Assembly (NCBI GenBank): GCA_964548055.1
Contig: CAZJPS010000003.1
Coordinates: 1-41,224, forward strand
DNA length: 41,224 nt
Direction of reading: 5' to 3'
Source: an uncultured Candidatus Peribacteria bacterium
GTDB lineage: Bacteria > Patescibacteriota > Gracilibacteria > Peribacterales > Peribacteraceae
This document shows, piece by piece, positions 3,161 through 38,102 of the stretch. The notes beneath the pieces were generated by a model that made no database searches, was not told the DNA's origin, and was given only the letters and a program-made list of their open reading frames with translations. Position 1 is the first letter of the stretch. Each line of letters opens with the position of its first letter. The position numbers and the translations under genes are program-made.

Positions 3161-3235
3161 TGGAGCCGCTGGAGAGAATTGAACTCTCGACCCACGCATT
3201 ACAAGTGCGTTGCTCTACCTCTGAGCTACAGCGGC
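3161..3235 (-). tRNA. tRNA-Thr (anticodon UGU), CCA encoded
   Basis: The reverse complement reads GCCGCTG TA GCTC AGAGGTA GAGC A ACGCA CTTGTAA TGCGT GGGTC GAGAG TTCAATT CTCTC CAGCGGC T CCA. This is a full cloverleaf: 7-bp acceptor stem, TGT anticodon in a 7-nt loop, and a T-loop. Confidence 0.9.
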
Positions 3236-3450: not shown

Positions 3451-3868
3451 GTCCTGCTCTTTCGATGACCGCCACGTGGGCGCTTGCGCCTTTACGTGGA
3501 GGAACGTCCGGGCATCACTGGAACGCTATGCGGGTAACGCCCGCCCATGTGCACCATATTAGGTAAATGTACATGAGGACGAGTGCCACAGAGACGAGCT
3601 CGCCTTCGGGTGAGAGTGAAACGCCTCGGGAACCGAGGTCCTCCGCCATCTAACTACGAAAGGGCTTGCCCTCCGTAGCCCAGAGGCGAAGGAGGGTAAA
3701 CTCATGGTGATGTAAGGAGGAATTGGGTTCGCGGAGTACATAGTGGTTCCGCCATGCCGCTTACCCCTCCGCTTGAGACCCCGAGCAATCGTGGTCCTAG
3801 AGAGATGGTCATCTCTCGGTGCACGCAAGTACATCGAGAACAGAACCCGGCGTATGAAAGAGCAGGAC
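3451..3868 (+). ncRNA. rnpB: RNase P RNA (bacterial type A-like)
   Basis: P1 pairing joins GTCCTGCTCTTTC (3451-3463) with GAAAGAGCAGGAC (3856-3868). The conserved blocks appear in canonical order: GGAGGAACGTCCGGGC (compare GAGGAAAGUCCGGGC), GGGTAACGCCC, GTGCCACAGAGAC, GGGTAAACTC and ACAGAACCCGGC. Ends are good to roughly +/-5 nt. Confidence 0.85.
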
Positions 3869-6442: not shown

Positions 6443-6886
6443 TTAGCGTGTCACGCGGATATTTGCCGTCTGCTCACCCGTAGCCGATACAGTGATGCGG
6501 CCATTGGTGTCCTGCATGATCATGTAGTTTGTACCTGTTCCTGCAGCTGGAGCCTGTGGATCTGCTGGGATACTGACAAGATAAGCACCTGTGAGCACGC
6601 GGAGGCTTACTCCGTTTACACAAGAGGTGGCACTTGCCTTACAAATTCCACGAGCGGAACCAACAGGAATGCCTGAAGGCAATGTTCCGTTGTTGTCGAT
6701 CGCATACTGATACACGGCGTTCAAAATAGTATTTACGTCAGATTGGCGCTGCGCATCACGAGCGTCACCAAGCTGCTTGGTTGGGTTAATCGCAACGATA
6801 ACGATCGATGCAAGGATGGCAATAATGCCAATCACGAGGAGGAGCTCAATGAGCGTGAACCCCAGACGGCGCGAGGAGCGGTTCAT
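6443..6886 (-). CDS. type IV (pseudo)pilin, probable major subunit
   Basis: I trimmed the track ORF to Met30 (ATG 6886..6884). MNRSSRRLG|FTLIELLLVIGIIAILASIVIVAI is a class III prepilin signal with G-1, F+1 and E+5. The gene is small (147 aa) and has its own promoter-like element and terminator. Confidence 0.8.
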   Translation of the reverse strand: MNRSSRRLGFTLIELLLVIGIIAILASIVIVAINPTKQLGDARDAQRQSDVNTILNAVYQYAIDNNGTLPSGIPVGSARGICKASATSCVNGVSLRVLTGAYLVSIPADPQAPAAGTGTNYMIMQDTNGRITVSATGEQTANIRVTR

Positions 6887-7094: not shown

Positions 7095-7730
7095 TCAGGG
7101 GCATGTCATGGGCGTTTGCGAAGTAAGGCACGTGCTTGCGGAGCACACCTGCCATACGTAATTCCCAGCACCATCGCAGCCGGGTTGTGCACAGTGGCAC
7201 GCATTTCCTACTTTCTCGTCATCTGGAAAAAGAGTAATAAGCGCTTCAAATGATTTTTCGTAAAAACGAGGAGCTTGAAGACGGACCGTACGAGAAATTG
7301 TAAATTGCACCTGAATACTCTGATGCTGCGAATCCACAGAAGTATTGCGAACCACAAAATTTTGCACTGCCACCTGTGCAGAGCTGAGCGTTTCTCTTGC
7401 CGTTCTACGAATGAGGATGAGTGATCCGCTATTCATTCCTATAATAGTAGGATTCGATCCTCCCGATCCTGTCTGCAACGCAAGTACCGCACCCGTAGAG
7501 CCTGCTACCGGACTGAGAATAAGTTCTGCATGACGCACTTGGTAAGAAATCGTCTGCAATAACTGCGTGCCATTTTGTTCTACAACAGAAACCGTCTGTT
7601 GCAATAATCTATCTTCGGTAGACATAAAAAGTATGGGCAGTACCACTGCGGCTATCACTCCTAAAATGGCCACATATATCAGCAATTCAATTAGTGTGGT
7701 TGCCGGACGGTGCGCTTTACAGAACATCAT
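7095..7730 (-). CDS. minor pseudopilin with Cys-rich C-terminus
   Basis: Starts at the tandem ATG ATG (7730/7727), just after the upstream gene's stop. MMFCKAHRPA|TTLIELLIYVAILGVIAAVVLPILF is a prepilin-type N-terminus with E+5. The C-terminal 35 aa contain 6 Cys. Confidence 0.7.
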   Translation of the reverse strand: MMFCKAHRPATTLIELLIYVAILGVIAAVVLPILFMSTEDRLLQQTVSVVEQNGTQLLQTISYQVRHAELILSPVAGSTGAVLALQTGSGGSNPTIIGMNSGSLILIRRTARETLSSAQVAVQNFVVRNTSVDSQHQSIQVQFTISRTVRLQAPRFYEKSFEALITLFPDDEKVGNACHCAQPGCDGAGNYVWQVCSASTCLTSQTPMTCP

Positions 7731-9751: not shown

Positions 9752-11017
9752 TTAATTGAAAGACATCAGCAGCACATCATCCTGAAAATCTGAAGATGCC
9801 GTATTGAGATCTCCAAGTTCGGATACTGCAAGTACTTCGCATGAACCGATGGTCACTTGGCCAGAGCTATTCGCCTTTCCCTTACTTACTAAATAATTCT
9901 TCAGAGAAGTTTGAGTGCCAAACCCTGGATAATTTTGAATCATATCTCCATTGCGCATCAGCAATATGTGTCCTGTTTGATCATTTGAATTATATGTTTC
10001 ATCAAAAGCGAGCCATCCATTTTGCTTATATGTACCGTGCACTCTCACAACCACCTGCTTGCCCGTTGCAACGCTCACTGTTTTTACATCCGTTCCTGTA
10101 GGACTGACTGCATTCCCATACGCATTGCCACTACCTTTACAGTTACCACTCCCTCCAAAGAGGGTCGACATGCTGGTCCCGTTATTCGTGCTGTAACACA
10201 AGTGTACGTTCACAGGAGGGCCACCAGCTCCAAATGTGATTTGTGAAAGCATGTTTGTGAAAGTGACGGTCGTGGCCGCAGTTGTATTGATTGTCTTATT
10301 CGATGCAATGGTGAACTTACAGGAAGCAGAACTACTGGCTCCTCCTCCCCCCGCAGCCGATGAGGCAACAGAGCTGCTCTGCGCAGAAGAACTATATGCA
10401 GAGGAAGCAACGCTACTTGCAACGCTACTTGTGGCACTACTTGCGGCAACGCTGCTTGCAGGACAAGATCCCATAGTTGCTCCCTGGCTTTGATAGGTGG
10501 GCCACGTGGAATCAGGAATTTGTATGGTTTCTTTTCCTCCTCCCGGGAGCGTACGGCAGATGGTAAGCGTATCTCCTTGGCTTGCAGAAATGGACTGAGT
10601 GTCCACAGCAATTTTTACTTGAATAACACGCTGATCATTATTGAGAGCACGAAGCACAATATCTCCCGTAGTATTCGGGACACCAACAACTCTTGCATAA
10701 GAAACATCTAATAATCCGGAAATAGCGATAGTGGAAGGCATGGAATACGATTCATCAAACTGCGTGTTTCTTGTTGCATACGATGTTCCTTTGTACAGCG
10801 TGCCCGATGGAACATAGAAACCCCATGCCGAATCACCTTGGCCTGTTTGCGAAAGCAACTTCGCCCTTCCAAGACCCTGCGTAACAAGCTGCGTTGCATT
10901 ATCTAAATCATTGCGAATTTGATATTCACGATAGAGGGGAATGGTGAGCGTGGTTGCCACTCCAATGATTCCAATTGTTATCAGCAGTTCCATGAGAGCA
11001 AATGCGCGACGATTCAT
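9752..11017 (-). CDS. GspH/FimT-like pseudopilin with Ser/Ala linker and unknown C-terminal domain
   Basis: MNRRA|FALMELLITIGIIGVATTLTIPLY has E+5 and is followed by a GspH-like segment (NATQLVTQGLGRAKLLS). Then come the linker SSVAASSATSSVASSVASSAYSSSAQSSSVASSAAGGGGASSS and about 195 aa that I cannot assign. Confidence 0.75.
   Translation of the reverse strand: MNRRAFALMELLITIGIIGVATTLTIPLYREYQIRNDLDNATQLVTQGLGRAKLLSQTGQGDSAWGFYVPSGTLYKGTSYATRNTQFDESYSMPSTIAISGLLDVSYARVVGVPNTTGDIVLRALNNDQRVIQVKIAVDTQSISASQGDTLTICRTLPGGGKETIQIPDSTWPTYQSQGATMGSCPASSVAASSATSSVASSVASSAYSSSAQSSSVASSAAGGGGASSSASCKFTIASNKTINTTAATTVTFTNMLSQITFGAGGPPVNVHLCYSTNNGTSMSTLFGGSGNCKGSGNAYGNAVSPTGTDVKTVSVATGKQVVVRVHGTYKQNGWLAFDETYNSNDQTGHILLMRNGDMIQNYPGFGTQTSLKNYLVSKGKANSSGQVTIGSCEVLAVSELGDLNTASSDFQDDVLLMSFN
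10407..10457. repeat. 12-nt tandem repeat (GCAACGCTACTT and variants) encoding the SSVA linker
   Basis: GCAACGCTACTT GCAACGCTACTT GTGGCACTACTT GCGGCAACGCTGCTT read on the plus strand, all inside CDS 9752..11017. Confidence 0.8.
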
Positions 11018-11061: not shown

Positions 11062-11162
11062 AATTGTTATATTGTTATATTGCTAAATTGTTAGGAATTA
11101 CGTCCTAAAGCCAAAAAATCGCTTGCGTACACACTAGCAATTGAACGCTATAACAATTAATA
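11062..11162. repeat. imperfect palindrome with arms built of ATTGTTAT-type 8-mers
   Basis: Left arm AATTGTTATATTGTTATATTGCTAAATTGTTAGG; right arm CTAGCAATTGAACGCTATAACAATTAATA. The outer stem is 10 bp (AATTGTTATA/TATAACAATT) and the inner stem is 7 bp (ATTGCTA/TAGCAAT). It sits between pilC and the GspH-like gene. Confidence 0.75.
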
Positions 11163-15683: not shown

Positions 15684-17234
15684 ATGAAACGAGCCCTCCT
15701 CTCGGTATCCGATAAGGCCGGCATCACAGATTTTGCACGCGGTCTCGTAGGAGCTGGATACCAGATCATATCCACAGGAGGAACACTCACTCATCTCACA
15801 AAAGAAGGCATCGACGTAACATCGGTAGAAGACATCACAAAATTTCCCGAATGTTTTGGAGGACGAGTGAAGACCATGCACCCCCTCATCATGGGAGGCA
15901 TTTTATTTCGCCGTGAGAATGCAGATGATGTGAAAGAGGCAAAAAAACTCGGCATTGAACCGATCGATATCGTGGTGGTGAATTTGTATCCGTTTAAAAA
16001 GACGGCAGAAGACCCTAGTAAAACTGATGCAGAAATTATTGAGCAGATTGATATTGGAGGACCAACACTGCTCCGAAGTGCAGCAAAAAATCATACGTCG
16101 GTGACTGTCGTGTGCGATAGCGCTGATTACGATCGCATTCTCTCGGAATTAAAAAAAAGTGGAGAAACATCGCTCGAGTTGAGAGCTGAGCTCGCCGCAA
16201 AAGTGTTCCTCCACACCGCTGCATACGATGCGATGATCGCGGAATATCTCTCCGAAGGACAAACTATGGGAGTGATTCTTACACAAGGAACTCCGCTACG
16301 GTATGGGGAAAACCCGCATCAGTGGGGAAAGTATTATGGGCTCTTCGAGCCAGTGGAAAGCGGAAAGTGGAAGGTGGAAAGTTCTGAACTCTCAACTTCC
16401 AAAACATGGGGAACTTTGCATCAAGGTAAAGCTCTCAGCTATCTAAATATTCTCGATGCCGATGCTGCATGGTCCGCTGTGTGTGAATTTGAAGAACCAA
16501 CTGCGGTGTTTGTGAAACACACAAATCCAAGTGGAATCGCCTCAGCAAAAACTATCGAAGAAGCTTTCCAACGTGCGTACGATGCCGATCGCCTCTCCGC
16601 CTTTGGCGTGATCATCGCTCTTAATAGACCATGCACAGAGGAAATTGCCAAAAAAATTATTGAGCAGAAAATTTTTACGGAAGTGATCATTACAGAAAGC
16701 TACGAAAAAGGAGCACTAAAAGTTCTTCAGGAAAAACCAAACATCCGCGTGATCGAACAAAAAGTTCGTCCCAATGGAGCCGTGCAATATCGCTCCGTCC
16801 TGGGAGGAATGCTGGTGCAAAATTCAGACCACAGAATTGTGACAGAAAAGGACTTCACAGTGGTGACAGATAAGAAGCCGACCAAAGAGCAGATCTCTGA
16901 TCTTCTCTTCGCCTGGAAAGCCGTAAAATATGCCAAATCAAACGCAATTGTGTTCGCAAAAGATCAGGTAACTGTCGGGATCGGTGCAGGTCAGACTAGC
17001 CGTGTCGATTCCACCTGGATCGCCGTCAAACGCGCAGGGGACCGTGCCAAAGGCGCCGTAATGGCTAGTGATGCCTTCTTCCCTTTCCCTGATTCCTTAG
17101 AAGAAGCTGCCAAAGCCGGCGTCAGTGCCATCATCCAGCCGGGAGGATCTATTAAAGATGCTGATGTATTCGCAAAAGCGAATGAGTTGGGAATTGTGAT
17201 GGTCACGACAGGCGTGAGGGCGTTTCGACATTAG
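15684..17234 (+). CDS. purH: bifunctional AICAR transformylase / IMP cyclohydrolase
   Basis: I trimmed the track ORF to MKRALLSVSDKAGI (ATG 15684), the canonical MGS-like N-terminus. Motifs present: YGENPHQ, GKALSYLNILDADAA, QTSRVDS and ASDAFFPF. It contains an in-frame heptamer element at 16353-16405. Confidence 0.92.
   Translation: MKRALLSVSDKAGITDFARGLVGAGYQIISTGGTLTHLTKEGIDVTSVEDITKFPECFGGRVKTMHPLIMGGILFRRENADDVKEAKKLGIEPIDIVVVNLYPFKKTAEDPSKTDAEIIEQIDIGGPTLLRSAAKNHTSVTVVCDSADYDRILSELKKSGETSLELRAELAAKVFLHTAAYDAMIAEYLSEGQTMGVILTQGTPLRYGENPHQWGKYYGLFEPVESGKWKVESSELSTSKTWGTLHQGKALSYLNILDADAAWSAVCEFEEPTAVFVKHTNPSGIASAKTIEEAFQRAYDADRLSAFGVIIALNRPCTEEIAKKIIEQKIFTEVIITESYEKGALKVLQEKPNIRVIEQKVRPNGAVQYRSVLGGMLVQNSDHRIVTEKDFTVVTDKKPTKEQISDLLFAWKAVKYAKSNAIVFAKDQVTVGIGAGQTSRVDSTWIAVKRAGDRAKGAVMASDAFFPFPDSLEEAAKAGVSAIIQPGGSIKDADVFAKANELGIVMVTTGVRAFRH
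16353..16405. repeat. GTGGAAA-heptamer palindromic element, compact copy inside purH
   Basis: GTGGAAA GCGGAAA GTGGAAG GTGGAAA GTTCTGA ACTCTCAACTTCCAAAAC. It is translated as VESGKWKVESSELSTSK. Confidence 0.75.
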
Positions 17235-17244
17235 ATGAAAAAGA

Positions 17245-17325
17245 GATAAAGGCGATAAAGGCCTCTTATGTAAAAAGACCTTTGTCCCTTTTGTCCCCTT
17301 TTAAACCTTTGTCCCCTTTTAAAGG
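17245..17325. repeat. GA(T/C)AAAGG / CCTTTGTCCCC palindromic repeat between convergent purH and recR
   Basis: Left arm GATAAAGGCGATAAAGGCC; right arm GACCTTTGTCCCTTTTGTCCCCTTTTAAACCTTTGTCCCCTTTTAAAGG. It belongs to the same family as 24556-24648. Confidence 0.75.
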
Positions 17326-17952: not shown

Positions 17953-18032
17953 CGTTTATTCGATAATTCGTTTACTCGTTTATTCGAATAACAATTTCGC
18001 GAATAAACGAATCAACGAGTAAACCAATAAAC
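17953..18032. repeat. palindrome of four CGTTTAYT 8-mers per arm
   Basis: CGTTTATT CGATAATT CGTTTACT CGTTTATT CG, a 12-nt loop, then CGAATAAACGAATCAACGAGTAAACCAATAAACG. The outer and inner units pair perfectly. Confidence 0.8.
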
Positions 18033-18043
18033 GAAAGAGTGCA

Positions 18044-20237: not shown

Positions 20238-20244
20238 GGTCAAA

Positions 20245-20341
20245 GTGGAAAGTGAAAAGCTGAGAGTTGAAAGTTATGGAAGCAGTCCTCCATTCGAGTA
20301 ATACGAGTTTCACTTTCCACTTTCCACTCTCAACTTTCAAC
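20245..20341. repeat. GTGGAAA-heptamer palindromic element, full intergenic copy
   Basis: GTGGAAA GTGAAAA GCTGAGA GTTGAAA GTTATGGAAGCAG...core...GTTTCAC TTTCCAC TTTCCAC TCTCAAC TTTCAAC. Confidence 0.8.
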
Positions 20342-20350
20342 TAATAATAA

Positions 20351-22354
20351 TTACCGTGTGCCAATATCAATCGCATATACTCTCTTCTCATCAATCACAT
20401 ACAGGTGGTTTTGGTCAGGATCCACATACAGATCCTTCAGTGTTCCCAGCTGTTCGCCTTCGAGAAGGTACTGTCGCACATAGGTTGCCTCACCCGTAGC
20501 ACCACCATCAGCTATCACAACCACACGAGCATTTACTGGATCTAATACATAGATATTGCCATTCGGAACCTTAAAAATCTTTGTGGCTGTTTTTAACACG
20601 TCTTTGGGGAATCCTCGAAGTGTGAATGGCTGCGCTTCGCCGCGCAGAAGCTTTAGAATTACACCACCTTCTTTCAGAACGTAGACACTCCCATCAATAG
20701 ACATATCCACTGCATCCGCAAGATCTGCATTCACGTTGTATCCCACGGGAGGCCCATATCTATTTTGTAGGTGCTCGTACTTGTAAATTTGTTTCTCTTT
20801 GGGGGCAAGGAGGTAGAGGTACCGAAGGTATGTTTCTATATCCACTCCTTCCTTCCATCCCTGAGGATCTTCTGTCTTCATCATTGTTGCCTGGTTTCCA
20901 ACAACCTCAGAAAGACTATTGCCTGTGGTCATGTATATCTGAGCATTAAAGCGCTCAAAAGGAGCGCCCAGAAGCAGCAATTCTCCTTCGCTCACTCGCC
21001 TTGGCTCATCCAGGGTATTGAGAAGCACTCTGTACGTGTACTGACGATCGAACACCACAAATTCTCCATCCCCAAGACCAATGAGACCTTGTGCCGATAC
21101 GTTGCTATTTTTGGAACTGAGGTTCACGACCACTCGTGGCGATACGCGTGCGGTGTTACTGAGCTCTTCTTGCTTCTGACGAATTTGATCAAGTAAATCC
21201 AGTGCTTCAGTTGTATAGAGGCGAGATTCATTGTTCACTACCTGACGAGCTTTATTTTCTGCTGTATCAAGAATCTCACTGGCACCCGCTGTATCTCCCG
21301 CCAGCTTACGGTTTTCTGCTACTCGAATGTTATCTTTTGCTTCCGTGAGAATTTGCGATAGCTCAGATTTTGTCTTGCTTCGCTGCGTGACAGTTGAAAG
21401 GCTCACCAACATCCAGATCACTAAAAATACCGCCACTGCTCCTGCAAGCAAAAGTAACTGTGCTCGCTTCCTGCGTTTGGGATTCCGTAGATCCGACAAA
21501 AATTGTTCTGCTTTTTCTTGCATATTCTCTATGAATCCCGTCGGCTTCTTTTTTATGCTTGGAATGAATCTCTGCACATCAAATTTTTTCCATGTGTTCG
21601 CAATCACTCCGCCCACGGGCGCGAGATATGAAAATCCTTGTTGAAGAATGCCCATAACGCCCGGCTGCCGCCCTCTTCGGGCCTGCCTTTTTGCTGCCAT
21701 TTCTTGCGTACGCGAGTGCTTGGCTGTTGCCACAGGAGCTGGGCTCCCTCCTGGCAATTGAATAATTGCTAGGGCAGCACTCTCTGCCTCTGCTTCAAGG
21801 GTTGCGGTTATTTCTTCAAGTGCTCCTTCTTGCGAGACAACGGTCCCAAGAGTTGCAGGGGTGAATGTGCGCAGTAAGCGATGAGTGGAAAGCACTACGG
21901 CATCACCCTCCTCAAGCTGACCAGTGCTAATGTGCACAAATGCAGGAACTGGCTTCCCAGGACTGAACTCTGTTATTTGGCTAGCCACTCCGCCTCGAAC
22001 CAAATACGCCTCCCCCCTACCCGCATGAGAGACATGAAGAGCGCCTGTCACTTCTAGTATCGCCACCACTGCATGCACTTCTTCTAATGCATTACTGAGC
22101 TGAAGCCCTTTAAAGAGACCGTTCAATTCTTTAAGAGTACCGTCCATTCGGTGCCATGCCTCGCCTTCTACCGACAAGAGCGAGTGCCGGATGATGCCTG
22201 CACACTCATCGGCGAATGATTCCATCTGGCTTTCTTTTGCATCTGATTGAATTAGCAAACATGCCCTTTCCCCTTGCGGAGAATGGAAAGTGAGAGAAAT
22301 AGGAGTGCTTGCTCCCTTCACCTCAGTAGAACCTGCGTAGACAGTAACGTCCAT
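20351..22354 (-). CDS. hypothetical bitopic membrane protein (N-terminal cytoplasmic PP2C-like-looking domain, TM, large C-terminal external domain)
   Basis: 667-aa ORF with an ATG start and a single TM, LLLLAGAVAVFLVIWMLVSL, near aa 300. The C-terminal region has repeated ...IYVLD.../...LYVID... strand motifs that suggest a beta-propeller. The domain calls are tentative. Confidence 0.65.
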   Translation of the reverse strand: MDVTVYAGSTEVKGASTPISLTFHSPQGERACLLIQSDAKESQMESFADECAGIIRHSLLSVEGEAWHRMDGTLKELNGLFKGLQLSNALEEVHAVVAILEVTGALHVSHAGRGEAYLVRGGVASQITEFSPGKPVPAFVHISTGQLEEGDAVVLSTHRLLRTFTPATLGTVVSQEGALEEITATLEAEAESAALAIIQLPGGSPAPVATAKHSRTQEMAAKRQARRGRQPGVMGILQQGFSYLAPVGGVIANTWKKFDVQRFIPSIKKKPTGFIENMQEKAEQFLSDLRNPKRRKRAQLLLLAGAVAVFLVIWMLVSLSTVTQRSKTKSELSQILTEAKDNIRVAENRKLAGDTAGASEILDTAENKARQVVNNESRLYTTEALDLLDQIRQKQEELSNTARVSPRVVVNLSSKNSNVSAQGLIGLGDGEFVVFDRQYTYRVLLNTLDEPRRVSEGELLLLGAPFERFNAQIYMTTGNSLSEVVGNQATMMKTEDPQGWKEGVDIETYLRYLYLLAPKEKQIYKYEHLQNRYGPPVGYNVNADLADAVDMSIDGSVYVLKEGGVILKLLRGEAQPFTLRGFPKDVLKTATKIFKVPNGNIYVLDPVNARVVVIADGGATGEATYVRQYLLEGEQLGTLKDLYVDPDQNHLYVIDEKRVYAIDIGTR

Positions 22355-22423: not shown

Positions 22424-22483
22424 GCAAATCCCAATTTTATTTTTTATTTTGTTGGGATCTGGGATCTAAGATTTGGGATTTGC
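22424..22483. repeat. TTGGGAT-unit palindrome in the divergent spacer
   Basis: GCAAATCCCAA ... GTTGGGATCTGGGATCTAAGATTTGGGATTTGC. The outer stem is 11 bp, and the unit is shared with 37985-38040. Confidence 0.7.
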
Positions 22484-22625: not shown

Positions 22626-24554
22626 ATGACAGAACAACAAGGAGGAGAGCGTGCATCCCCAAGTGGGCAGCGCTCATCGGAGACGGGAAATACACCCCGC
22701 CCACCATCCCAGCAAAAACCGGGGCAGCCCTTTCGACATAATAACCGGAGGAGACGCTTCCGAAGAAAACCACTATCACCTTCCGTTCCTTTCCAAGGAC
22801 CAAAGCCCATTCTTCCTACTGTAGGAGGAACTGCTTCCCCTGTTCCTGCGGCACAACCTGCCGTGGTACAGACGGGAGGAATACGCAAAGGAAACCTGCG
22901 CGTGTATCCGCTGGGAGGGTTTGAACAGGTAGGTCGTAACTGCTTCGTGATTGAAGTAGACGACGATATATATTTGATCGATCTAGGCCTTCAATTTCCA
23001 GATGAAGATATGTTGGGAATTGATTATTTGATTCCTGATATCTCCACACTCCGCGGGCGAGAGAATCGTATTAAAGCGGTTCTGTTCACGCATGGGCACC
23101 TAGACCACATTGGAGCAGCGCAGCATTTATTACCCGCTCTCCACTTTCCACCCTGCTACGGCACTCGCCTCACCATGGCATTTGTACGCAAGCGCCTGGA
23201 AGAGGAAAAGCTGAATGCCAAGGCACAGCTCAATACCGTAAACTTCCGTGAGAAAGTAAAAATTGGAAAAATTACTGTGGAATTCTTGCGTGTCACGCAC
23301 TCCATACCAGACTCAGCCGCCATTGCCGTGCACACTCCGTATGGGACGATCGTGCACACGGGTGACTTCAAGTTTGACCTCACTCCTATGAACGAACCGC
23401 CTGCGGATTTTCACCGCCTGGCTGAACTGGGAGATGAAGGAGTATTGGCCATTATTGCCGATTCCACCAACGCAACAAAACCCGGACACAGTAAAAGCGA
23501 GAAAGAAATCTCGCAGACACTCTTCGGTCTCATTCGTGATGCAAAAGGCAGAGTAATTATCTCTACCTTCAGTTCACTTTTGAATCGCCTTGAACAAGTG
23601 ATCGAACACGCACGCAGATTCAATCGCAAAGTATTTATTTCTGGCCGCAGCATGGAAGCCAACATCGATATCGCCCAGCAGCTGGGTTACATCAAGGCTC
23701 CACGGGGTCTCATCCGTAAGGTAAATCCTGCCATGGATAAGCTTCCGGATAGCGAAGTGCTTATCCTTACCACGGGTAGCCAAGGAGAAGAGGTGGCAGG
23801 CCTTGCCCGCATGGGCCTTGGTACACACCGTCACATCACTATTAAAAAGGGCGATACCGTCGTATTAAGCTCCAATCCTATTCTTGGAAACGAACGCGCC
23901 GTTGCAAAAGTGGTGAATAACCTCAATTTGCTGGGTGCACACGTAAAAACCAATCAGGAATTAGCACTGCATACAACGGGACACGGCTATCAGCAGGATC
24001 TCCTCCTCATGCACCGCCTTGTGCGTGCGCGCCATATCATTCCCGAACACGGTGAACCACACATGCGCTCTGCTCATGCAGATCTTGTGCGAGGAATTGG
24101 GTACCCAGAGAACCAAGTGCACCTCCTCGTGAACGGAGAAATTATTGAATTCGATGCGAAAGGTGATGCTAGGCGCAGTAAACAGAAAGTACCCTACCGC
24201 GATGTGATTATTGATGGACGCGGCTCTGCCGGTGAAGGCCAAAAGACTCTGGATGATCGCAAAATCATGAGTACCTCCGGGATGATTATCATCCTCTTTA
24301 AGGTGTACACCGATAGTAAGCGCTTGGTAGCCGATCCCGAAGTGCTCTCACGCGGGTTCCTGTATGGCTCGGAACAAACCGAGATCAGCCGAGAAATTAT
24401 TCAAACTTCACGCAAAGCCTACGAAGACGAACTGAACAGAGGTGAAAAGGATCGCAAAGCCCTCAAGCGAGCGATCACAGGTGCACTCTTCCGCTATTTC
24501 GATCGCAAGCTAGACCGCGAGCCGATGGTGATTCCACTTATGGTTGAGGTTTAA
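22626..24554 (+). CDS. rnj: ribonuclease J (beta-CASP metallo-beta-lactamase) with basic disordered N-terminal extension
   Basis: Motifs FTHGHLDHIGA, VHTGDFKFDLTP and a beta-CASP segment, followed by the C-terminal domain. The first ~85 aa are low-complexity (RRRRFRRKP). Confidence 0.9.
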   Translation: MTEQQGGERASPSGQRSSETGNTPRPPSQQKPGQPFRHNNRRRRFRRKPLSPSVPFQGPKPILPTVGGTASPVPAAQPAVVQTGGIRKGNLRVYPLGGFEQVGRNCFVIEVDDDIYLIDLGLQFPDEDMLGIDYLIPDISTLRGRENRIKAVLFTHGHLDHIGAAQHLLPALHFPPCYGTRLTMAFVRKRLEEEKLNAKAQLNTVNFREKVKIGKITVEFLRVTHSIPDSAAIAVHTPYGTIVHTGDFKFDLTPMNEPPADFHRLAELGDEGVLAIIADSTNATKPGHSKSEKEISQTLFGLIRDAKGRVIISTFSSLLNRLEQVIEHARRFNRKVFISGRSMEANIDIAQQLGYIKAPRGLIRKVNPAMDKLPDSEVLILTTGSQGEEVAGLARMGLGTHRHITIKKGDTVVLSSNPILGNERAVAKVVNNLNLLGAHVKTNQELALHTTGHGYQQDLLLMHRLVRARHIIPEHGEPHMRSAHADLVRGIGYPENQVHLLVNGEIIEFDAKGDARRSKQKVPYRDVIIDGRGSAGEGQKTLDDRKIMSTSGMIIILFKVYTDSKRLVADPEVLSRGFLYGSEQTEISREIIQTSRKAYEDELNRGEKDRKALKRAITGALFRYFDRKLDREPMVIPLMVEV

Positions 24555-24555: not shown

Positions 24556-24648
24556 GCGGACAAACGTTGTAAAGGTTTTAAAGGGGACAAAGGCCTAAAA
24601 ACTTTTGTCCCTCTTGTCACTTTTATCCCCTTTGTCCCCTTTTCAAGG
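24556..24648. repeat. GGGGACAAAGG / CCTTTGTCCCC palindromic repeat
   Basis: Left arm GCGGACAAACGTTGTAAAGGTTTTAAAGGGGACAAAGGCC; right arm CTTTTGTCCCTCTTGTCACTTTTATCCCCTTTGTCCCCTTTTCAAGG. Confidence 0.75.
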
Positions 24649-25308: not shown

Positions 25309-25386
25309 AGCACCATCTAAGCGTGTCACGCTGAACTTTGCGGGCGATACGCGGGAGGAAGTATTTCTCGTATTCCCCCACCCTAA

Positions 25387-25420
25387 CCCTCCCCCTCGGG
25401 GGAGGGAATGTTTTTGTTTG
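25387..25420 (+). terminator. intrinsic terminator after the HAD gene
   Basis: CCCTCCCC-ctcg-GGGGAGGG stem-loop followed by AATGTTTTTGTTTGTTTT. Confidence 0.5.
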
Positions 25421-25424
25421 TTTT

Positions 25425-25454
25425 AAAAATCTCCCTTCCCCCGTGGGGAAAGGG
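25425..25454 (-). terminator. intrinsic terminator after pyrC
   Basis: The minus strand reads CCCTTTCCCC-acg-GGGGAAGGG followed by AGATTTTTAAAA. Confidence 0.45.
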
Positions 25455-25505
25455 CCGGGGATGGGGGTATTCTGAGGAATTACTTCACCATAACTAGTGA
25501 CCCTA

Positions 25506-26795
25506 TTATCCCTTCACAGTCCTCACTGCCTTCCCCTTCACCTCCCACCCCTCATACGGGGTCCACCCACATTTACTGTGTAGATCTTTGCCGCGAATAG
25601 TCCATGAAACATTTGGATCAACCAAGATGAAATCGCAAAGCGAACCTTCCGCGACATCATTTTTTCTGAGTGAGAAAATGCGATTGGGATTTTGGAAGCA
25701 CAGCCGAAGGATATCTGTTGGCTTCAGTTTTGTAAGCAGCAATGGAAGCATCGTCTCCACTCCTGGTACTCCACTGGGTGCCTCCAAAGGATTTTTCGCC
25801 TTCTTCTCTTCGAAGGTATGTGGCGCATGATCGGTCGAAATACAGTCGACGGTGCCATCCGCTACCCCTTCCCACAGAGCGTCTTGATGCCCCTTGGTGC
25901 GAAGCGGCGGGTTCATTTTTCCAAGCGTTCCAAGCGTCTTGTAGTCATCCGTTGTGAGGAACAAATGATGTGGTGCCACTTCACAAGTCACACCCAAACC
26001 TTCCTTCTTTGCCTCTCGCACAAGCTCAATTCCTTGCTTGGTAGACAAGTGGGCAACATGCAGATGTGTGCCGTGTATGCGAGCCAGAGCGATAGCATCC
26101 GTAATAGACTTCTCCTCGGATTCAGGTGGCCTCATTTTAGAATGAGCACTCACATCACTTTCCACTTTCCACTTTTCACTTTCAACTTTATTCATCGAAG
26201 CATCCTCGCAATGGCACACGACCGTAACGCCGAGTTCCGCACACACCTTAAAAGCCTCATCCAAAATTTCTCCATCAATTTTCTGATCCCCCGTAGAGTG
26301 ATCGAGGTACAGTTTTACGCCGCAACACTGTTTTTTCAGCCTCTGGAGTTCCGCCGAGTCTCCGGTCCATAGTTCTCGTAGGGCAACGAGGTGAACTGCT
26401 TTGGTCACCCCGAAGAAGAACCTGATATCGCACCCGCTTATCTCCTGTGCCCTTCGTACTTTATCTGCCAGCGCTGCAACTGTAACAGTGGGTGGGATGG
26501 TATTAGGCATCTCACACACCGTCGTTACACCTCCTGCAAGCGCACTCATTGCTTCTGTTTTCATGGAGGCTTTGTACTCTAATCCTGGTTCGCGGAAGTG
26601 GACATGACAATCGATCAGTCCCGGCATAATGAGAAGTCCGGTTGCATTAATAACTTCCAAAGTTGAAAGTTGAAAGTTGAAAGTTGAAAGTTCGGACGTG
26701 ATAGATGTGATGGTGCCGTCTTCGATTAAAATATCTACCTGTCGCTCTTCTTGAGAGTTCACGAGTGTGCCGTTTTGGATGAGGAAATTTTTCAT
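25506..26795 (-). CDS. pyrC: dihydroorotase
   Basis: Motifs PGLIDCHVHFREPG and ISTDHAPH. Its ATG overlaps the pyrB stop (ATGA). It contains two heptamer arrays read in frame. Confidence 0.9.
   Translation of the reverse strand: MKNFLIQNGTLVNSQEERQVDILIEDGTITSITSELSTFNFQLSTLEVINATGLLIMPGLIDCHVHFREPGLEYKASMKTEAMSALAGGVTTVCEMPNTIPPTVTVAALADKVRRAQEISGCDIRFFFGVTKAVHLVALRELWTGDSAELQRLKKQCCGVKLYLDHSTGDQKIDGEILDEAFKVCAELGVTVVCHCEDASMNKVESEKWKVESDVSAHSKMRPPESEEKSITDAIALARIHGTHLHVAHLSTKQGIELVREAKKEGLGVTCEVAPHHLFLTTDDYKTLGTLGKMNPPLRTKGHQDALWEGVADGTVDCISTDHAPHTFEEKKAKNPLEAPSGVPGVETMLPLLLTKLKPTDILRLCFQNPNRIFSLRKNDVAEGSLCDFILVDPNVSWTIRGKDLHSKCGWTPYEGWEVKGKAVRTVKG
26156..26189. repeat. heptamer array inside pyrC (CACTTTC orientation on the plus strand)
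   Basis: CACTTTC CACTTTC CACTTTT CACTTTC AACTTT. On the coding (minus) strand it reads KVESEKWKVES. Confidence 0.8.
26652..26692. repeat. heptamer array inside pyrC (GTTGAAA x4 on the plus strand)
   Basis: AACTTCCAAA GTTGAAA GTTGAAA GTTGAAA GTTGAAA GTT. On the coding strand it reads SELSTFNFQLSTLE. Confidence 0.8.
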
Positions 26796-27709
26796 GCTTT
26801 CCCGAGAAGCATAGCAAGAACTGCCATGCGTACGGGAACACCATTACGAGCCTGACGGAAATAGGCTGCGTTGGGGAGGGCATCTACTTCTTCCGCAATT
26901 TCACCCACTCGAGGAAGCGGATGCATCACAATTGCTTTTCTGCCTTTCACATGATCCGCTTTCAGAATGTATTGGAGCTTGAGACGCTCGTATTCTGCTG
27001 GATCTGCGAAGCGTTCCTTTTGAACACGCGTCATATAAATTACATCAGCATCAAGCCCTGCATCTATCGTATCTGCTTGCGTAAAATCGATATTTTTTTC
27101 TTTCAGGAAGCTCGTTACCTTCTCTGGCATGGTAAGTTCCTTGGGCGCGATGAGAGTGAAGCGAACACCAGGATAAAGACCTAGAAGAAAACAGAGCGAG
27201 TGCACGGTACGGCCGTACCGCAGATCCCCCACCATTGCGATATGTACGCCATCTAATTTCTTGCACTCTTTCTTGATCGTATAAAGATCCAACAGTGCCT
27301 GAGTAGGATGCTGACCTGGGCCATCACCGGCATTAATGAAGGGAACTGGACACACAGTGATTGCGCGGTCGGCACTTCCCTGCTCGGGGTGCCGCATCGC
27401 AATGATGTCCGCATATCCACCCACCATCATCATCGTGTCTTCAATCGTCTCTCCTTTATAGAGTGAGCTGAATTGGAATCCATCGGCTGTAATTACCTGG
27501 CCTCCAAGCCGGAGCATGGCAGTTTCAAAGCTGAGGCGCGTGCGCGTGCTTGGCTCGTAAAAGAGTGCGGCGAGGATTTTGCCTGCGAGAAGGTCACTTC
27601 CTCCTTTCTTCAGCACCTTCTCCATGGTAGCCGCCTCTGCCAAAATAGCGTCCGTATCACTGCGCGAGAGCTGCTTAGTGGACGTGAGGTGACGGAAGCT
27701 TAAGGGCAT
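26792..27709 (-). CDS. pyrB: aspartate carbamoyltransferase catalytic subunit
   Basis: 305 aa with the motifs STRTRLSFE, HPTQALLD and HPLPR. Confidence 0.92.
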   Translation of the reverse strand: MPLSFRHLTSTKQLSRSDTDAILAEAATMEKVLKKGGSDLLAGKILAALFYEPSTRTRLSFETAMLRLGGQVITADGFQFSSLYKGETIEDTMMMVGGYADIIAMRHPEQGSADRAITVCPVPFINAGDGPGQHPTQALLDLYTIKKECKKLDGVHIAMVGDLRYGRTVHSLCFLLGLYPGVRFTLIAPKELTMPEKVTSFLKEKNIDFTQADTIDAGLDADVIYMTRVQKERFADPAEYERLKLQYILKADHVKGRKAIVMHPLPRVGEIAEEVDALPNAAYFRQARNGVPVRMAVLAMLLGKA

Positions 27710-27751: not shown

Positions 27752-27872
27752 GAGGATTCAGAGGAATCAGACGAAACAGAAGAGCCAGAGGATACGTAAT
27801 TATTCTCCTCAGTAACTGCCGTATAGTTTCTACAGTGAATCCTCTGATTCGTCTGAGTCCTCTGCTTCTTCC
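27752..27872. repeat. CAGAGGA-unit imperfect palindrome in the pyrB/flippase divergent spacer
   Basis: Left arm GAGGATTCAGAGGAATCAGACGAAACAGAAGAGCCAGAGGA; right arm GAATCCTCTGATTCGTCTGAGTCCTCTGCTTCTTCC. About 22 of 28 positions are complementary in the best register. Confidence 0.7.
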
Positions 27873-27895
27873 AATTCCTCATCTACAATCCCCTC

Positions 27896-31074: not shown

Positions 31075-32376
31075 GTGAAAACGATTCTGATCCTTGCCGG
31101 CAAATCACGACGTTTTTGGCCTCTTTCGGAAAAGCCCCTCTTCCCTATCCTTGGGAAGACCCTTGCAGAACATCAGGTGGACGCGCTGAAGTCGGCAGGA
31201 CTCACCGATCTGATTCTCGTTGTGAATAAAGAGAACAAAGCTGAACTTTCCACGCTCTACCCAAAGACTCCCATTGTCGTCCAAGAAGGAGAAGCCCTTG
31301 GAATGCACCGGGCATTCTTAGCTGCCCTCCCGCTTTGTAAAAAAGAAGCGGTGCTCTTAGTCTCGGGCAACGATTTCATTGATCCCTCTGCCTACAAAGA
31401 TTTACAAAAAGAAGCATCTGGAAAAGATGTATCCGGTGCACTCCTCGCTTACAAAGTTAGCAGGTATTTTCCCGGTGGATATCTCACGGTAAAGAATGGA
31501 CAGGTCACGTCCATCATAGAAAAGCCTGGGGAGGGTAAAGAGCCAAGCGATCTTGTGAATATCGTTGCACACGTACACAACGATGCATCGAGGCTTTTAG
31601 AGGCCCTTAAGAAAGTGAAGGAAGGCGATGATGGTTACGAGCGTGCACTCGATTCTCTTTTGAAAACCGAACACTACCGCGCAGTCCCCTATGAAGGTCC
31701 TTGGCAACCCGTAAAGTATTCGTGGCATCTGCTCCCACTCCTCTCTCAGCTCCTTGGCACAATCACGAAACCGTCTATTCACAAGAAAGCGATCATTCAC
31801 CCTACCGCCGTTATAGAAGGAAATGTGATCATCGAAGAAGGCGTGCGCATTCTTCCTCATGCAACAGTGAAGGGCCCTTGCTACATTGGAACCGGATCCA
31901 TTATTGGTAACAATGCCCTCGTGCGAGATTCCAGCATTGGGGAGAACTGCGTGGTGGGTTTTGGCACAGAAGTGAAAGGCAGCATCCTCGCAGGCCCTGT
32001 GTGGACCCACATGACCTACCTGGGCGATAGTGTGGTGGGCCGCAATGTTTCGTTTGGTGGCGGGTGCATGACTGGCAACCTACGCCTCGATGAAAGCGAG
32101 ATCCTCTCTGCAGAGCCTCTCGGTGAAGGCTCCGTTCAAACCGGTCTCACAAAACTTGGGCTGATTGTGGGAGACAACTGCCGCTTTGGAATCCACGTGG
32201 GAACAAACCCTGGAGTAAAGGTGGGGAGTGGCACATTTGTGAGTGGAGGCATAATGCTTGGTAGCGACATTCCAGAGGAAAGTTTTGTGAAGAAGACGGA
32301 GGCAGGCAGTACTGAAGTGAGAAAAAATAAAACTGGCGTTCCAGGAATGGGAGAGAGGAAAAAGTATTTTAGATAA
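31075..32376 (+). CDS. sugar-phosphate nucleotidyltransferase with C-terminal left-handed beta-helix (GlmU/GCD1-like)
   Basis: GTG start. The N-terminal LAGKSRRFWPL is an NTP-transferase loop, and the C-terminus has hexapeptide repeats (IEGNVIIEEGVRILPHATVKGPCYIGTGSIIGNNALVRDSSIGENCVVG). Confidence 0.8.
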   Translation: MKTILILAGKSRRFWPLSEKPLFPILGKTLAEHQVDALKSAGLTDLILVVNKENKAELSTLYPKTPIVVQEGEALGMHRAFLAALPLCKKEAVLLVSGNDFIDPSAYKDLQKEASGKDVSGALLAYKVSRYFPGGYLTVKNGQVTSIIEKPGEGKEPSDLVNIVAHVHNDASRLLEALKKVKEGDDGYERALDSLLKTEHYRAVPYEGPWQPVKYSWHLLPLLSQLLGTITKPSIHKKAIIHPTAVIEGNVIIEEGVRILPHATVKGPCYIGTGSIIGNNALVRDSSIGENCVVGFGTEVKGSILAGPVWTHMTYLGDSVVGRNVSFGGGCMTGNLRLDESEILSAEPLGEGSVQTGLTKLGLIVGDNCRFGIHVGTNPGVKVGSGTFVSGGIMLGSDIPEESFVKKTEAGSTEVRKNKTGVPGMGERKKYFR

Positions 32377-32391
32377 TTGAACGACTGGTAA

Positions 32392-32479
32392 GCTGAGAGT
32401 TGAAAGTGAAAAGTTACGAAGCAGATCTGACACAGGTATTTCTTCTAAAACTTTCACCTATTCACTCCCAACTTTCCAC
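32392..32479. repeat. GTGGAAA-heptamer palindromic element, full intergenic copy abutting the DnaA-box cluster
   Basis: GCTGAGA GTTGAAA GTGAAAA GTTACGAAGCAG...core...TTTCACC TATTCAC TCCCAAC TTTCCAC. It shares the 16-mer GCTGAGAGTTGAAAGT with copy 20245-20341. Confidence 0.8.
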
Positions 32480-32501: not shown

Positions 32502-32893
32502 TGTGGATAACCCCTGAAACAAGGACCTAGTTTGCCTTCGGCTATCTCACTCAAGATGGAAATGAAGGTTCTTAATCTTCTTAAAACTGATTTTTATCTC
32601 TTTTTTGCCTCTCGATTGTTCAAAATTGTTATCCACAATGGCTGTGGAAAATGCATCTTGAATGGAGGGGTATACATAGCCTGAGGTATGCACAGGTAGT
32701 TTTATTATTGGCTTACATAAGCCATTTCTTTGTTTCTATGAGCGCTCCTCATTCTTAGGTGGCTTGTCCACGAGTTTTCCACATCCGCCCCACACAGAGA
32801 ATGTGTTCATATGAAGATAGAATTTGATCTAGAAGCCGTCTTCTGTATATTACGTTTCTTTTTTCCACATATTAGACAAGAAGATGTGGAGGA
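32502..32893. promoter_or_regulatory. DnaA-box cluster, candidate chromosomal origin (oriC)
   Basis: Perfect TTATCCACA boxes lie at 32502-32510 (reverse) and 32629-32637. TTTTCCACA boxes lie at 32643-32651 (reverse), 32775-32783 and 32861-32869. Weaker boxes occur at 32764-32772 and 32885-32893. AT-rich tracts flank the cluster, and dnaN lies immediately downstream. Confidence 0.55.
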
Positions 32894-32956: not shown

Positions 32957-34099
32957 ATGAAATTTTCCTGCACAACTTCAGATTTTCTTTCCTCACTTCA
33001 ACTTGTAAGTAGAGCAATTGGAAGCCAGCAAGCTCTTCCAATTTTAGGAAATGTTCTTTTAGAGGCGAAAGGAATTAGTTGTACTGTAAGTGCGACAGAT
33101 TTAGAGCTGAGTATTATCACTAGTTTTCCTGCAGCTATTGAGAGCGAAGGATCAATTACAATTCCTGCAAAGGCAATTGTAAATTTTGCACAGTACAATT
33201 CAGATCAAGAATTAACGTTGGAGGTAAAAGATGGAACGCAATTAAAATGTACTTCTAAACACGCAAAAACAGTGATAGCGGGAGAGGCTGCTTCAGAGTA
33301 TCCAACAATCACAGAAGTAGAAAAACAGACATCATTCTCTTTAGACCCAGCTGTTCTTTTACAGTCTCTTCATTATGTCACTTTTGCGGCAGCCAGAACA
33401 ACACTGCGTCCTGTTCTTTCTGGTGTGTATGTTCGCAGAAGTGGTCATTCTCTTATTCTTGTTTCTACTGATAGCTACCGTCTTTCAGAGTTCAAGCTTC
33501 CTGCAGATGGGGAGGATCAGGAGCTTTCCTGTATAATTCCGGTAAAGATTTTAGAGGAAGTGAAGGTGGCTCTAAGTGCTCAAAAAGGAGACAAGAAGGG
33601 AAAGGAAGAAAAGGAGAATATGCCAAGAGTGGCCGTAACACTTAGTAAGCAGCAGATTGAGGTGAAAATTGGTGATACGAGGTTTATGTCCCGCCTGATT
33701 GATGGCAAGTTTCCAAATTACGAACAGATTATTCCTAAGGAAACGACGACCACTATCCTCTTCACCACAAGCGAGCTCCTCGTTGCCGTAAAACGCATGC
33801 ACTATTTTGCGAAAGAGATGAATAACAATCTCACATTCACTTTTTCGGAAGGCAAAGCAGTAATTGCCACTCCTCAAACACAGGTAGGAAAGGATGAGGC
33901 TGAGTTAACTGCGGAGATTACGGGGGGAGATACTAAGATCGCTCTCAGTTCCTCTTATCTTTTAGATTTCCTCAATCATATTGATAGTGATGTTGTTGTG
34001 ATGAAGATGACAGACCCCCAACATCCGGCTATCTTTGGCCTTCCGGGAGAGGAGAGGTTTTTGCATCTTATAATGCCTTTGAGGATGCAGGAAGCATGA
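32957..34099 (+). CDS. dnaN: DNA polymerase III beta sliding clamp
   Basis: 380 aa. The N-terminus MKFSCTTSDFLSSLQLVSRAIGSQQALPILGNVLLEAKG, the segment LIDGKFPNYEQIIP and the C-terminal LIMPLRM are typical of DnaN. Confidence 0.92.
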   Translation: MKFSCTTSDFLSSLQLVSRAIGSQQALPILGNVLLEAKGISCTVSATDLELSIITSFPAAIESEGSITIPAKAIVNFAQYNSDQELTLEVKDGTQLKCTSKHAKTVIAGEAASEYPTITEVEKQTSFSLDPAVLLQSLHYVTFAAARTTLRPVLSGVYVRRSGHSLILVSTDSYRLSEFKLPADGEDQELSCIIPVKILEEVKVALSAQKGDKKGKEEKENMPRVAVTLSKQQIEVKIGDTRFMSRLIDGKFPNYEQIIPKETTTTILFTTSELLVAVKRMHYFAKEMNNNLTFTFSEGKAVIATPQTQVGKDEAELTAEITGGDTKIALSSSYLLDFLNHIDSDVVVMKMTDPQHPAIFGLPGEERFLHLIMPLRMQEA

Positions 34100-37980: not shown

Positions 37981-37984
37981 CCTT

Positions 37985-38040
37985 GAGTAAATCCCAAATC
38001 CCAAGCTCCAATGTTGGGATTTGGTCATTGGGATTTACTC
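37985..38040. repeat. TTGGGAT-unit palindrome immediately after the mfd stop
   Basis: GAGTAAATCCCAAATCCCAAGCTCCAATGTTGGGATTTGGTCATTGGGATTTACTC. The outer stem is 13 bp (GAGTAAATCCCAA/TTGGGATTTACTC) and the inner stem is 7 bp. Confidence 0.8.
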
Positions 38041-38102
38041 AAATCGCAGATAGGCGAGATCTAGCCTCAAAGGCTCTTTTCTGCTATACTGGTGAGAAAC
38101 CC

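Follow-up and report, generated by a model that had tools for sequence, protein, structure and literature searches.

This analysis concerns an intergenic element, here called E1 (20242–20342), in a stretch of 41,224 nt from an uncultured Candidatus Peribacteria bacterium (assembly GCA_964548055.1, contig CAZJPS010000003.1, positions 1–41,224); the whole stretch is referred to as the window. We give about even chances to the interpretation that E1 is one copy of a family of dispersed, noncoding, and nonautonomous palindromic repeats which have arms of tandem heptamers and are tolerated only at permissive sites. Such a repeat would consist of a 5' arm with a tandem GTKRAAA array, a nonrepetitive core, and a 3' arm with the complementary array. 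A second intergenic copy, E2, is situated at 32392–32479, and further arrays lie inside two host genes, purH and a pyrC-type dihydroorotase gene (Table 1).

A first reading of this DNA from its letters alone (the sequence-only reading) had proposed heptamer arrays at five loci. All five were borne out by the sequence, and Tandem Repeats Finder (TRF) called period-7 arrays of 4.4–4.9 copies each at 16352–16382, 20242–20275, 20311–20342, 26156–26189, and 26659–26692. When both strands were scanned for in-phase double units of G[TC][GT][GA]A[AG]A, i.e., of the GTGGAAA/GTTGAAA/GTGAAAA family, 16 were found, whereas 0.12 were expected from 300 first-order Markov simulations of the window and no simulation gave more than 2. 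The frequency of the heptamers is thus far above compositional expectation, and the arrays fall under the definition of long simple-sequence repeats (tandem units of 5–11 nt, longer than expected by chance). A weaker copy had been suggested at 38366–38390; this region is purine-rich but holds no phased heptamer array and was therefore dropped from the family. An assembly artefact could be ruled out, because the sequence is identical in independent JGI and Logan assemblies, which means that the arrays are real. The Logan contig of the same strain stops exactly at the outer edge of E1, as expected if the array recurs in the genome.

The proposed architecture of the intergenic copies, a left arm, a core, and a complementary right arm, was confirmed by inverted repeats and folding. 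In E1 the inverted arms at 20242–20257 and 20308–20323 comprise 16 nt each, are 100% complementary, and are 50 nt apart. The element folds with –36.1 kcal/mol (z –4.1) on the minus strand, on which both flanking genes are encoded, and on this strand the core holds a small internal hairpin (GGAGGA...CTTCC). E1 fills the spacer from the stop codon of a gene for 667 residues (20351–22354, minus strand) to the ATG at 20237 of a cytidylyltransferase gene (minus strand). E2 begins 16 nt past the stop codon of an NTP-transferase gene (31075–32376), and its fold is stronger on the minus strand (–34.3 kcal/mol, z –3.3) than on the plus strand (–26 kcal/mol, z –1.4). A listed open reading frame (ORF) at 32080–32457 on the minus strand crosses E2 and is probably spurious.

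Both intergenic copies contain the 16-mer GCTGAGAGTTGAAAGT without mismatch, at 20259 in E1 and at 32392 in E2, as had been noticed before. With up to two mismatches 6 matches were obtained, compared with 0.06 expected. The starts of the cores (TATGGAAGCAG in E1 and TACGAAGCAG in E2) and the right-arm segments common to both are as earlier described, and the variant unit GCTGAGA is also present in both. Within the 2.86 Mb compared, the arm–core junction A[AG]AGT(T)A[TC]G(G)[AG]AGCA[AG] was found only in E1 (and in the contig L208 of the same strain), in E2, and in an in-frame element of 73 nt within the purH loop of a Peregrinibacteria genome (L001) whose PurH is 69% identical. The 16-mer, the GCTGAGA unit, and the junction support the earlier claim of a dispersed family with common descent of E1 and E2. 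As the junction is common to both and to the in-frame purH copy of another Peregrinibacteria genome, the sequence comparison points to common descent of all three as dispersed elements. Units recur at unlinked loci of the window, GTKRAAA at five, a 9-mer family at two, and GGGATTT at two.

All genic copies examined keep the reading frame and contain no stop codon. The genic copies are therefore translated, and spliced or bypassed inserts, such as those of T4 gene 60 or the yeast mitochondrial 'byps', are ruled out. Judged from the reading frames, the arrays would be translated as VESGKWK-like or F(P/Q)LSTF(H/N)-like filler. The peptides VESGKWKVES in PurH and KVESEKWKVES in PyrC had been read correctly, and VESGKWKVESSELSTSK is among the peptides encoded by genic copies. 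It had also been stressed that the unit is free of stop codons in all six frames. This is correct for GTGGAAA but not distinctive, since 50.4% of all heptamers share this property. As 7 and 3 have no common factor, a pure array yields one and the same cyclic peptide in each of its three frames, and consequently pure GTTGAAA or GTGAAAA arrays meet TGA in every forward frame, not in one forward frame only as had been stated for GTTGAAA. Such arrays can thus be coding only if they are mixed or in reverse orientation, as in pyrC.

The purH copy lies in a loop between the alignment motifs GENPHQWGKYY and SWGxLHQGK. This loop is 12 residues longer than in the PurH of M. tuberculosis (3zzm), and in relatives its length ranges from about 8 residues (P0002) to about 42 (P0040); inserts are absent from some relatives. 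An AlphaFold2 model gives pLDDT values below 50 over residues 226–267 and low-confidence coil at the insert, so that the loop is predicted to be disordered. We compared the DNA of the loop in nine Peregrinibacteria lineages, including the window, by fold energy and shuffle z (Table 1). The purH copy has the array but no stable hairpin, the loop folding no better than shuffled sequences in the window and in L001. The window copy looks like an internally deleted version of the element which has lost its stable hairpin. Its sequence GTGGAAAGCGGAAAG resembles the left arm of the hairpin in L210 (GCGGAAAGCGGAAAG) and remnants in L209, and GYGGAAR units at this site therefore seem to be older than these lineages. 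The purH gene of L001 has two more in-frame arrays in other PurH loops (6460–6491 and 7255–7330), one a single arm and one a full palindrome with the unit CCGCTAC/GTAGCGG, and thus carries three repeat insertions.

PyrC homologues with legible source names came from Candidatus Peregrinibacteria, Peribacteria, or the Patescibacteria group, and about five Peregrinibacteria loci were among the matches listed in a profile scan of metagenomes with the PyrC alignment. Site 1 is 5 residues longer than in the solved dihydroorotase 4yiw. In strain L205 it is of equal length, with a degenerate array where that of the window is perfect, and it is situated inside a recombinant tract of about 88% identity. 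At site 2 the same DNA array is found in L206, a relative whose PyrC is 62% identical and whose locus has a G+C content of 59%. There the GTGGAAA/GTGAAAA array (10620–10690) is interrupted by a nested in-frame palindrome of 22 nt that is G+C-rich (CCCGCCTGCCGGACGGGCAGGG). This arrangement recalls the very small dispersed repeats reported by Elhai et al. (2008) to insert into heptamer arrays of cyanobacteria. At a third PyrC loop, where the window has no insert, L206 carries a complete AT-rich hairpin in frame (z –6.4). AT-rich hairpins (about 25% G+C by eye) are thus in frame within a pyrC gene of 57% G+C in a locus of 59% G+C. Other relatives have direct in-frame arrays of different heptamers in the same PyrC loops; L127 shows (GGGTTAG)x3, a telomere-like sequence, in frame at site 2, and L125 shows (CGAATTA)x4 in the C-terminal loop.

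Relatives with 60–72% protein identity carry related heptamer arrays at the purH and pyrC sites, and these sites are hypervariable columns of the PurH and PyrC alignments. The genic copies are thus old occupants of hypervariable loops and not recent insertions. The earlier view of the genic copies as element insertions thus holds as far as their in-frame position in tolerant, variable loops is concerned, but neither recent insertion nor a net gain at pyrC site 2 could be sustained. Copies were shown to persist only at tolerant places, namely in spacers just past a stop codon or just before a start codon and in hypervariable disordered surface loops. A purine-rich low-complexity stretch in dnaN, residues 209–221 (33583–33618) encoding QKGDKKGKEEKEN, may be another loop insertion.

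The genic arrays could also be ancestral or selected protein sequence, i.e., a VESGKWK-type motif, with the intergenic arrays as coincidental low complexity. KVESEKWKVES-like peptides at the same pyrC site in the relatives P0122, P0124, P0125, and P0137 and the lack of a net length change at site 2 would agree with this explanation. However, other relatives have unrelated residues at these positions, conservation is seen at the level of the DNA unit and includes nested DNA palindromes, and one DNA unit read on either strand yields unrelated peptides. As the purH loop is moreover predicted to be disordered and the array statistics exclude chance, we consider a protein motif very improbable.

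The GTGGAAA-type family is one of several in a guild of tandem-repeat-armed hairpins. The window has other long hairpins of the same build with different units of 7–9 nt (z –3.4 to –6.2), and two of the unit families occur at a second locus; an array related to the AAATCCC hairpin lies at 22435–22482. Arrays with a period of 6–12 nt and an inverted partner amount to 1.94 per 10 kb in the window, compared with 0.74 in other Peregrinibacteria loci and 0.20 in other phyla (791 kb). The family would accordingly form part of a wider guild populating Peregrinibacteria genomes.

Strain L205 is about 99% identical to the window and has two of the intergenic hairpins and both pyrC arrays at the same length; the hairpin at 24562–24642 is identical. 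Phase-variation contingency loci are ruled out by this lack of length change. Identity to L205 is about 100% over most of 24.3–28.0 kb and about 88% in the 5' half of pyrC (26000–26800), which resembles a recombination tract; beyond about 28015 synteny ends, and L205 has aminotransferase and enolase fragments. More distant relatives differ at orthologous positions. The spacer orthologous to that of E1 holds a 9-mer hairpin in L209 (–48.7 kcal/mol, z –7.1), and in L210 it measures just 57 nt and is free of repeat arrays. In L173 a GTGGAAA-family element occupies the divergent pyrB-upstream spacer, in place of the 9-mer hairpin of the window. A protein look-up for polymorphism at E1 matched only the same strain.

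Several observations weigh against E1 as a copy of a dispersed repeat. No target-site duplication is apparent, as there is no direct repeat in the flanks of E1 (GGTCAAA and TAATAAT) or of E2 (CTGGTAA and GTACTTT). The cores of E1 and E2 cannot be aligned beyond about 12 nt. No transposase or RAYT (Y1 transposase) domain was detected in 30 proteins scanned from the larger ORFs of the window, and no parent insertion sequence was found among these genes. A simple terminator consensus scan called neither E1 nor E2, and neither has a T-run after the element. The array at pyrC site 2 is not a net insertion, as relatives and 4yiw have unrelated residues of equal length at this position. Finally, the hairpins in orthologous spacers and loops are built from unrelated units, which an origin in place would explain equally well.

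According to a purely local origin, the hairpins would arise and grow in place by replication slippage and by quasi-palindrome template switching, through which changes in one arm are copied to the other; no element would move, and selection would only filter their survival. Reduced repair in bacteria of the Candidate Phyla Radiation (CPR) might favour both processes. The 7-, 8-, and 9-mer hairpins of like build in the window are in line with this, as are the different contents of the E1-orthologous and pyrB-upstream spacers, the five heptamer hairpins, each different, in the purH loop of five lineages, and the direct-only arrays of further units in the same loops. In 791 kb from unrelated bacteria, arrays of period 7 are also more frequent than those of any other class, in agreement with Mrazek et al. 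(2007), who, as cited in PMC4679880, found heptamers to be the commonest long simple-sequence repeat in bacteria. On the other hand, growth in steps of 7 nt would shift the frame in essential genes; the unit, the variant unit, and the arm–core junction are found again at unlinked loci and in a second genus; and AT-rich arrays in a 57% G+C gene run contrary to the local composition. A fixed arm polarity is likewise not predicted by a local origin, and among 23 inverted array pairs no more than 250 nt apart the purine-rich arm is 5' in 22 and 3' in 1. Each of these four points argues for insertion as blocks. The missing length change between close strains also speaks against growth in place. The data thus fit a purely local origin less well than block-inserted repeats, and we regard it as possible but somewhat unlikely.

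As dispersed repeats, copies would be placed as blocks by copy-and-paste or ectopic recombination. After placement, slippage and arm-to-arm correction or replacement would change the arrays, so that hairpin and position would outlive the unit sequence; slippage and template switching probably contribute to the turnover of units and to the complementarity of the arms. A more far-reaching interpretation, which we regard as doubtful, is a structure-defined rather than sequence-defined class of mobile or self-renewing hairpins with tandem-repeat arms that home to existing hairpins or permissive sites in Peregrinibacteria and perhaps in many bacteria and phages. Hairpin homing would account for the persistence of a hairpin of –40 to –59 kcal/mol in one spacer or protein loop even though its heptamer unit is replaced in the course of evolution. 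The stable in-frame hairpins of purH and pyrC would then be kept by homing or by selection on coding mRNA structure.

In the long intergenic stem–loops the 5' arm is A-rich and the 3' arm U-rich on either strand. Transcribed copies would act like repetitive extragenic palindromic (REP) elements, i.e., as transcript ends or as barriers to 3'-exonucleases between neighbouring genes. From their placement, stability, and A-rich-5'/U-rich-3' polarity, the intergenic copies probably serve as transcript-end or stability hairpins, and the hairpin of E1 would also mask the leader abutting the start codon of the cytidylyltransferase gene.

Alternatively, the hairpins could be primarily selected cis-acting RNA structures, conserved in structure and free in sequence. 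In the intergenic regions these would be bidirectional terminators, attenuators, or processing and stability signals, and inside purH and pyrC translation-pausing or mRNA-structure signals. Conserved hairpin positions with differing units but complementary arms in every lineage would be accounted for, the 22:1 polarity suits a bidirectional terminator, and nearly all spacers of the window have such a hairpin. Cross-phylum copies, too, often have flanking A-runs and T-runs and are located right after stop codons. Yet some families of the window (CGTTTATT and ATTGTTAT) show the opposite polarity, and in L173 the two arms belong to different divergent transcripts. Under the definition of an intrinsic terminator as a G+C-rich stem of 5–20 bp with a short loop and a U-tract after it, E1 and E2 were not called; their arms are U-rich but have no T-run behind them, while classical terminators exist at 25387–25454. 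Furthermore, the purH hairpin is lost or decayed in the window, L001, and L334 and absent from L002, and L210 has no hairpin at the E1-orthologous spacer, all without obvious consequence. Primary selection as RNA structure is therefore quite unlikely in our view.

The classical terminators lie back to back in a spacer of 197 nt (25309–25505) between the convergent pyrC and HAD hydrolase genes; they consist of CCCTCCCCCTCGGGGGAGGG plus a T-run and, on the other strand, CCCTTTCCCCACGGGGGAAGGG plus a T-run, and the terminator scan called them at 25387–25406 and 25454–25433. This spacer is wholly absent from L205, in which only about 3 nt separate the two genes.

A link of the heptamers to DnaA boxes had been raised as speculation in the sequence-only reading. 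The region 32502–32869 contains five perfect DnaA boxes (two TTATCCACA and three TTTTCCACA) within 370 nt upstream of dnaN; dnaA is not adjacent. This cluster is probably oriC, with both box variants in use. On the proposed link, the TTTCCAC arrays would be DnaA-box-like titration or origin-associated sites. E2 ends 23 nt before the first perfect box, and CTTTCCACT matches the box TTTTCCACA at 7 of 9 positions. In the syntenic relative L206, however, DnaA boxes precede dnaN but an E2-like element is missing from this spacer, so that the proposed link finds no support. Only one of the five copies lies near the cluster, the resemblance to the box is weaker still for GTTGAAA and GTGAAAA units, and the arrays are present in many phyla and in viruses in ordinary spacers. 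A role in DnaA binding is thus extremely improbable.

The GTGGAAA-type unit is also found outside this lineage. Searched as a 21-nt pattern, three successive family units occur at no fewer than 120 loci in genome contigs and at least 120 loci in viral contigs. Bacteroidota, cyanobacteria, Ignavibacteria, Nitrospirae, Patescibacteria, and others are among the matches listed. The hairpins of other phyla are tight in spacers right after stop codons and often flanked by A-runs and T-runs, and some single genomes (L019/L073; L031) hold multicopy elements with related cores or inverted copies. Queries with the repeat peptide retrieved hundreds of short, domain-less "hypothetical proteins", mostly spurious ORFs across intergenic arrays; two repeat-derived proteins carry a PF05635 domain (23S rRNA intervening-sequence protein).

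The elements would appear to work most like Rickettsia palindromic elements (RPE), being in frame in tolerant regions, and like REP elements, forming hairpins after stop codons. RPE are reportedly (Ogata et al. 2000) hairpin repeats found both in intergenic regions and in frame within conserved protein genes, as observed here. Further similarities are inserted peptides in exposed, tolerant regions, orthologous insertions inherited across species, and the lack of a known transposase. In contrast, the arms of RPE are unique sequence, the consensus of a family (RPE-1 to RPE-8) covers the full length of about 100–150 bp, and RPE are restricted to Rickettsia, whereas the window belongs to a CPR bacterium, the arms are tandem heptamers, and one site can hold different units in different lineages. 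The cyanobacterial short tandemly repeated repetitive (STRR) sequences have the units CCCCAGT, TTGGTCA, or CAACAGT and occur in heterocystous cyanobacteria; the units GTGGAAA, GTTGAAA, and GTGAAAA and their CPR host are different. The likeness to RPE suggested earlier thus applies to in-frame palindromes in tolerant loops but not to taxon and arm type, and the likeness to STRR applies to tandem heptamers but not to unit and taxon.

Tandem units of 7 nt are a feature shared with long simple-sequence repeats, with STRR, and with the TAACTGA repeats of Beggiatoaceae (PMC4679880). These repeats are mostly intergenic and often abut start codons, replacing the Shine–Dalgarno sequence, similar to E1 and the L173 element. 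They are described as direct arrays, with only one inverted pair among 170 TAACTGA sets, and TAACTGA contains stop codons and is excluded from genes (PMC4679880), whereas here inverted pairs form long hairpins and arrays are in frame in essential enzymes. REP, BIME, and REPIN sequences (PMC3116915) are likewise multicopy, nonautonomous palindromes after stop codons, with proposed roles as stabilisers of mRNA 3' ends or as terminators. They are, however, short, G+C-rich, imperfect, extragenic by definition, and without tandem-repeat arms, and they are mobilised by RAYT transposases; the present elements have A+T-rich tandem arms, and three copies lie inside genes. Miniature inverted-repeat transposable elements (Correia/NEMIS, Nezha, and the QMITEs of Coxiella; PMC10969869, PMC5896051) are also small, have terminal inverted arms around a core, and are occasionally inserted in frame. 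E1 and E2 have such terminal inverted repeats (16 nt perfect plus longer imperfect arms), but the arms are tandem repeats, and neither a target-site duplication nor a cognate insertion sequence was found in the window. The coding palindromes of Nematomorpha mitochondria (PMC6649704) are long, stable inverted repeats in frame in conserved genes; they are from animal mitochondria, have perfect arms without short tandem periodicity, and have no intergenic relatives. In the searchable literature, including the Peribacteria genome paper, we found neither these units nor any hairpin repeats of Peregrinibacteria described. Hairpin repeats with tandem-heptamer arms, lying between genes and in frame within loops of conserved enzymes, are unusual but not unprecedented as bacterial repeat DNA.

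If E1 is indeed a dispersed repeat, the streamlined genomes of CPR bacteria (about 1 Mb) would tolerate or use abundant hairpin repeats, very stable ones even inside essential enzyme genes. Besides Rickettsia, there would then be another, independent example of protein loops shaped by palindromic DNA. Such repeats would also provide a natural system for the creation, copying, and upkeep of complementarity of hairpins, be it by template switching or by a hairpin-targeting enzyme. For annotation, arrays of this unit are a source of hundreds of spurious proteins in public databases, and they break assemblies.

Table 1. Repeat features of the window and the purH loop in Peregrinibacteria lineages (fold energies in kcal/mol).
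Feature	Position	Strand	Basis	Fold energy	z
E1 left arm, about 4.9 units GTGGAAA/GTGAAAA/GCTGAGA/GTTGAAA	20242–20275	+	TRF period 7, inverted-repeat search
E1 nonrepetitive core	20276–20307	+	Sequence, junction motif
E1 right arm, TTTCAC/TTTCCAC/TCTCAAC/TTTCAAC units complementary to left arm	20308–20342	+	TRF, inverted repeats, folding
E2 left arm (GCTGAGA GTTGAAA GTGAAAA GT)	32392–32414	+	Sequence, 16-mer match
E2 core	32415–32449	+	Sequence, junction motif
E2 right arm, degenerate complementary units	32450–32479	+	Sequence, folding
purH copy in frame, four forward units, short decayed right arm (CTCTCAACTTCC)	16353–16405	+
pyrC site 1, perfect (AAAGTTG)x4.9, single arm, read on minus as ELSTFNFQLSTLE	26659–26692	+
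pyrC site 2, CACTTTC-type array, single arm, read on minus as KVESEKWKVES	26156–26189	+
Possible two-unit trace in rnj (GTGGAAAGTGGAGA), weak	23138–23151	minus	Double-unit scan
9-mer GATAAAGGC / CCTTTGTCC hairpin, convergent purH–recR spacer	17245–17319			–24.6	–4.0
Same 9-mer family (GGGGACAAAGG / CCTTTGTCCCC), rnj–HAD hydrolase spacer	24562–24642			–33.4	–4.2
9-mer GAGGAATCA / TGAATCCTC hairpin filling divergent spacer upstream of pyrB	27752–27880			–51.6	–4.3
7-mer AAATCCC / TTGGGAT hairpin directly after mfd stop codon	37983–38042			–31.9	–6.2
8-mer CGTTTATT / CGAATAAA hairpin, smpB–recR spacer	17953–18035			–27.9	–4.0
8-mer ATTGTTAT-armed hairpin between two minus-strand genes	11062–11158			–27.7	–3.4
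purH loop, L209, in-frame hairpin, unit CAGTGRY				–56.7	–3.5
purH loop, L210, in-frame hairpin, unit AGCGGAA				–58.7	–6.5
purH loop, L331, in-frame hairpin, unit AGCGRTY				–51.4	–3.6
purH loop, L332, in-frame hairpin, unit AAGACGT				–38.2	–2.7
purH loop, L333, in-frame hairpin, unit AGGACTT				–54.4	–6.2
purH loop, window, weak or decayed hairpin				–17.6	–0.4
purH loop, L001, weak or decayed hairpin				–17.9	–0.65
purH loop, L334, direct array only				–23.7	0.09
purH loop, L002, no insert				–7.0	1.32

Among the genes of the window are housekeeping genes and genes for type IV pili; it also encodes RNase P RNA and two tRNAs. In a scan with Rfam 15 only the RNase P RNA and the two tRNAs reached the gathering score; at E ≤ 1 there were in addition only sub-threshold animal miRNA hairpins over E1 and over the oriC-like spacer downstream of E2. 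A known RNA family for E1 or E2 is thereby ruled out. The RNase P RNA (class A, 142.7 bits) at 3464–3854 on the plus strand adjoins tRNA-Thr (3161–3235, minus strand), and mechanically listed ORFs overlap it. The listed ORF 37983–38447 (plus strand) crosses the AAATCCC hairpin, and its start is probably wrong. The ORF 38634–39365 (plus strand) matches the DOT1 histone-methyltransferase domain PF08123 (E 8e-19), which is unusual for a CPR bacterium.

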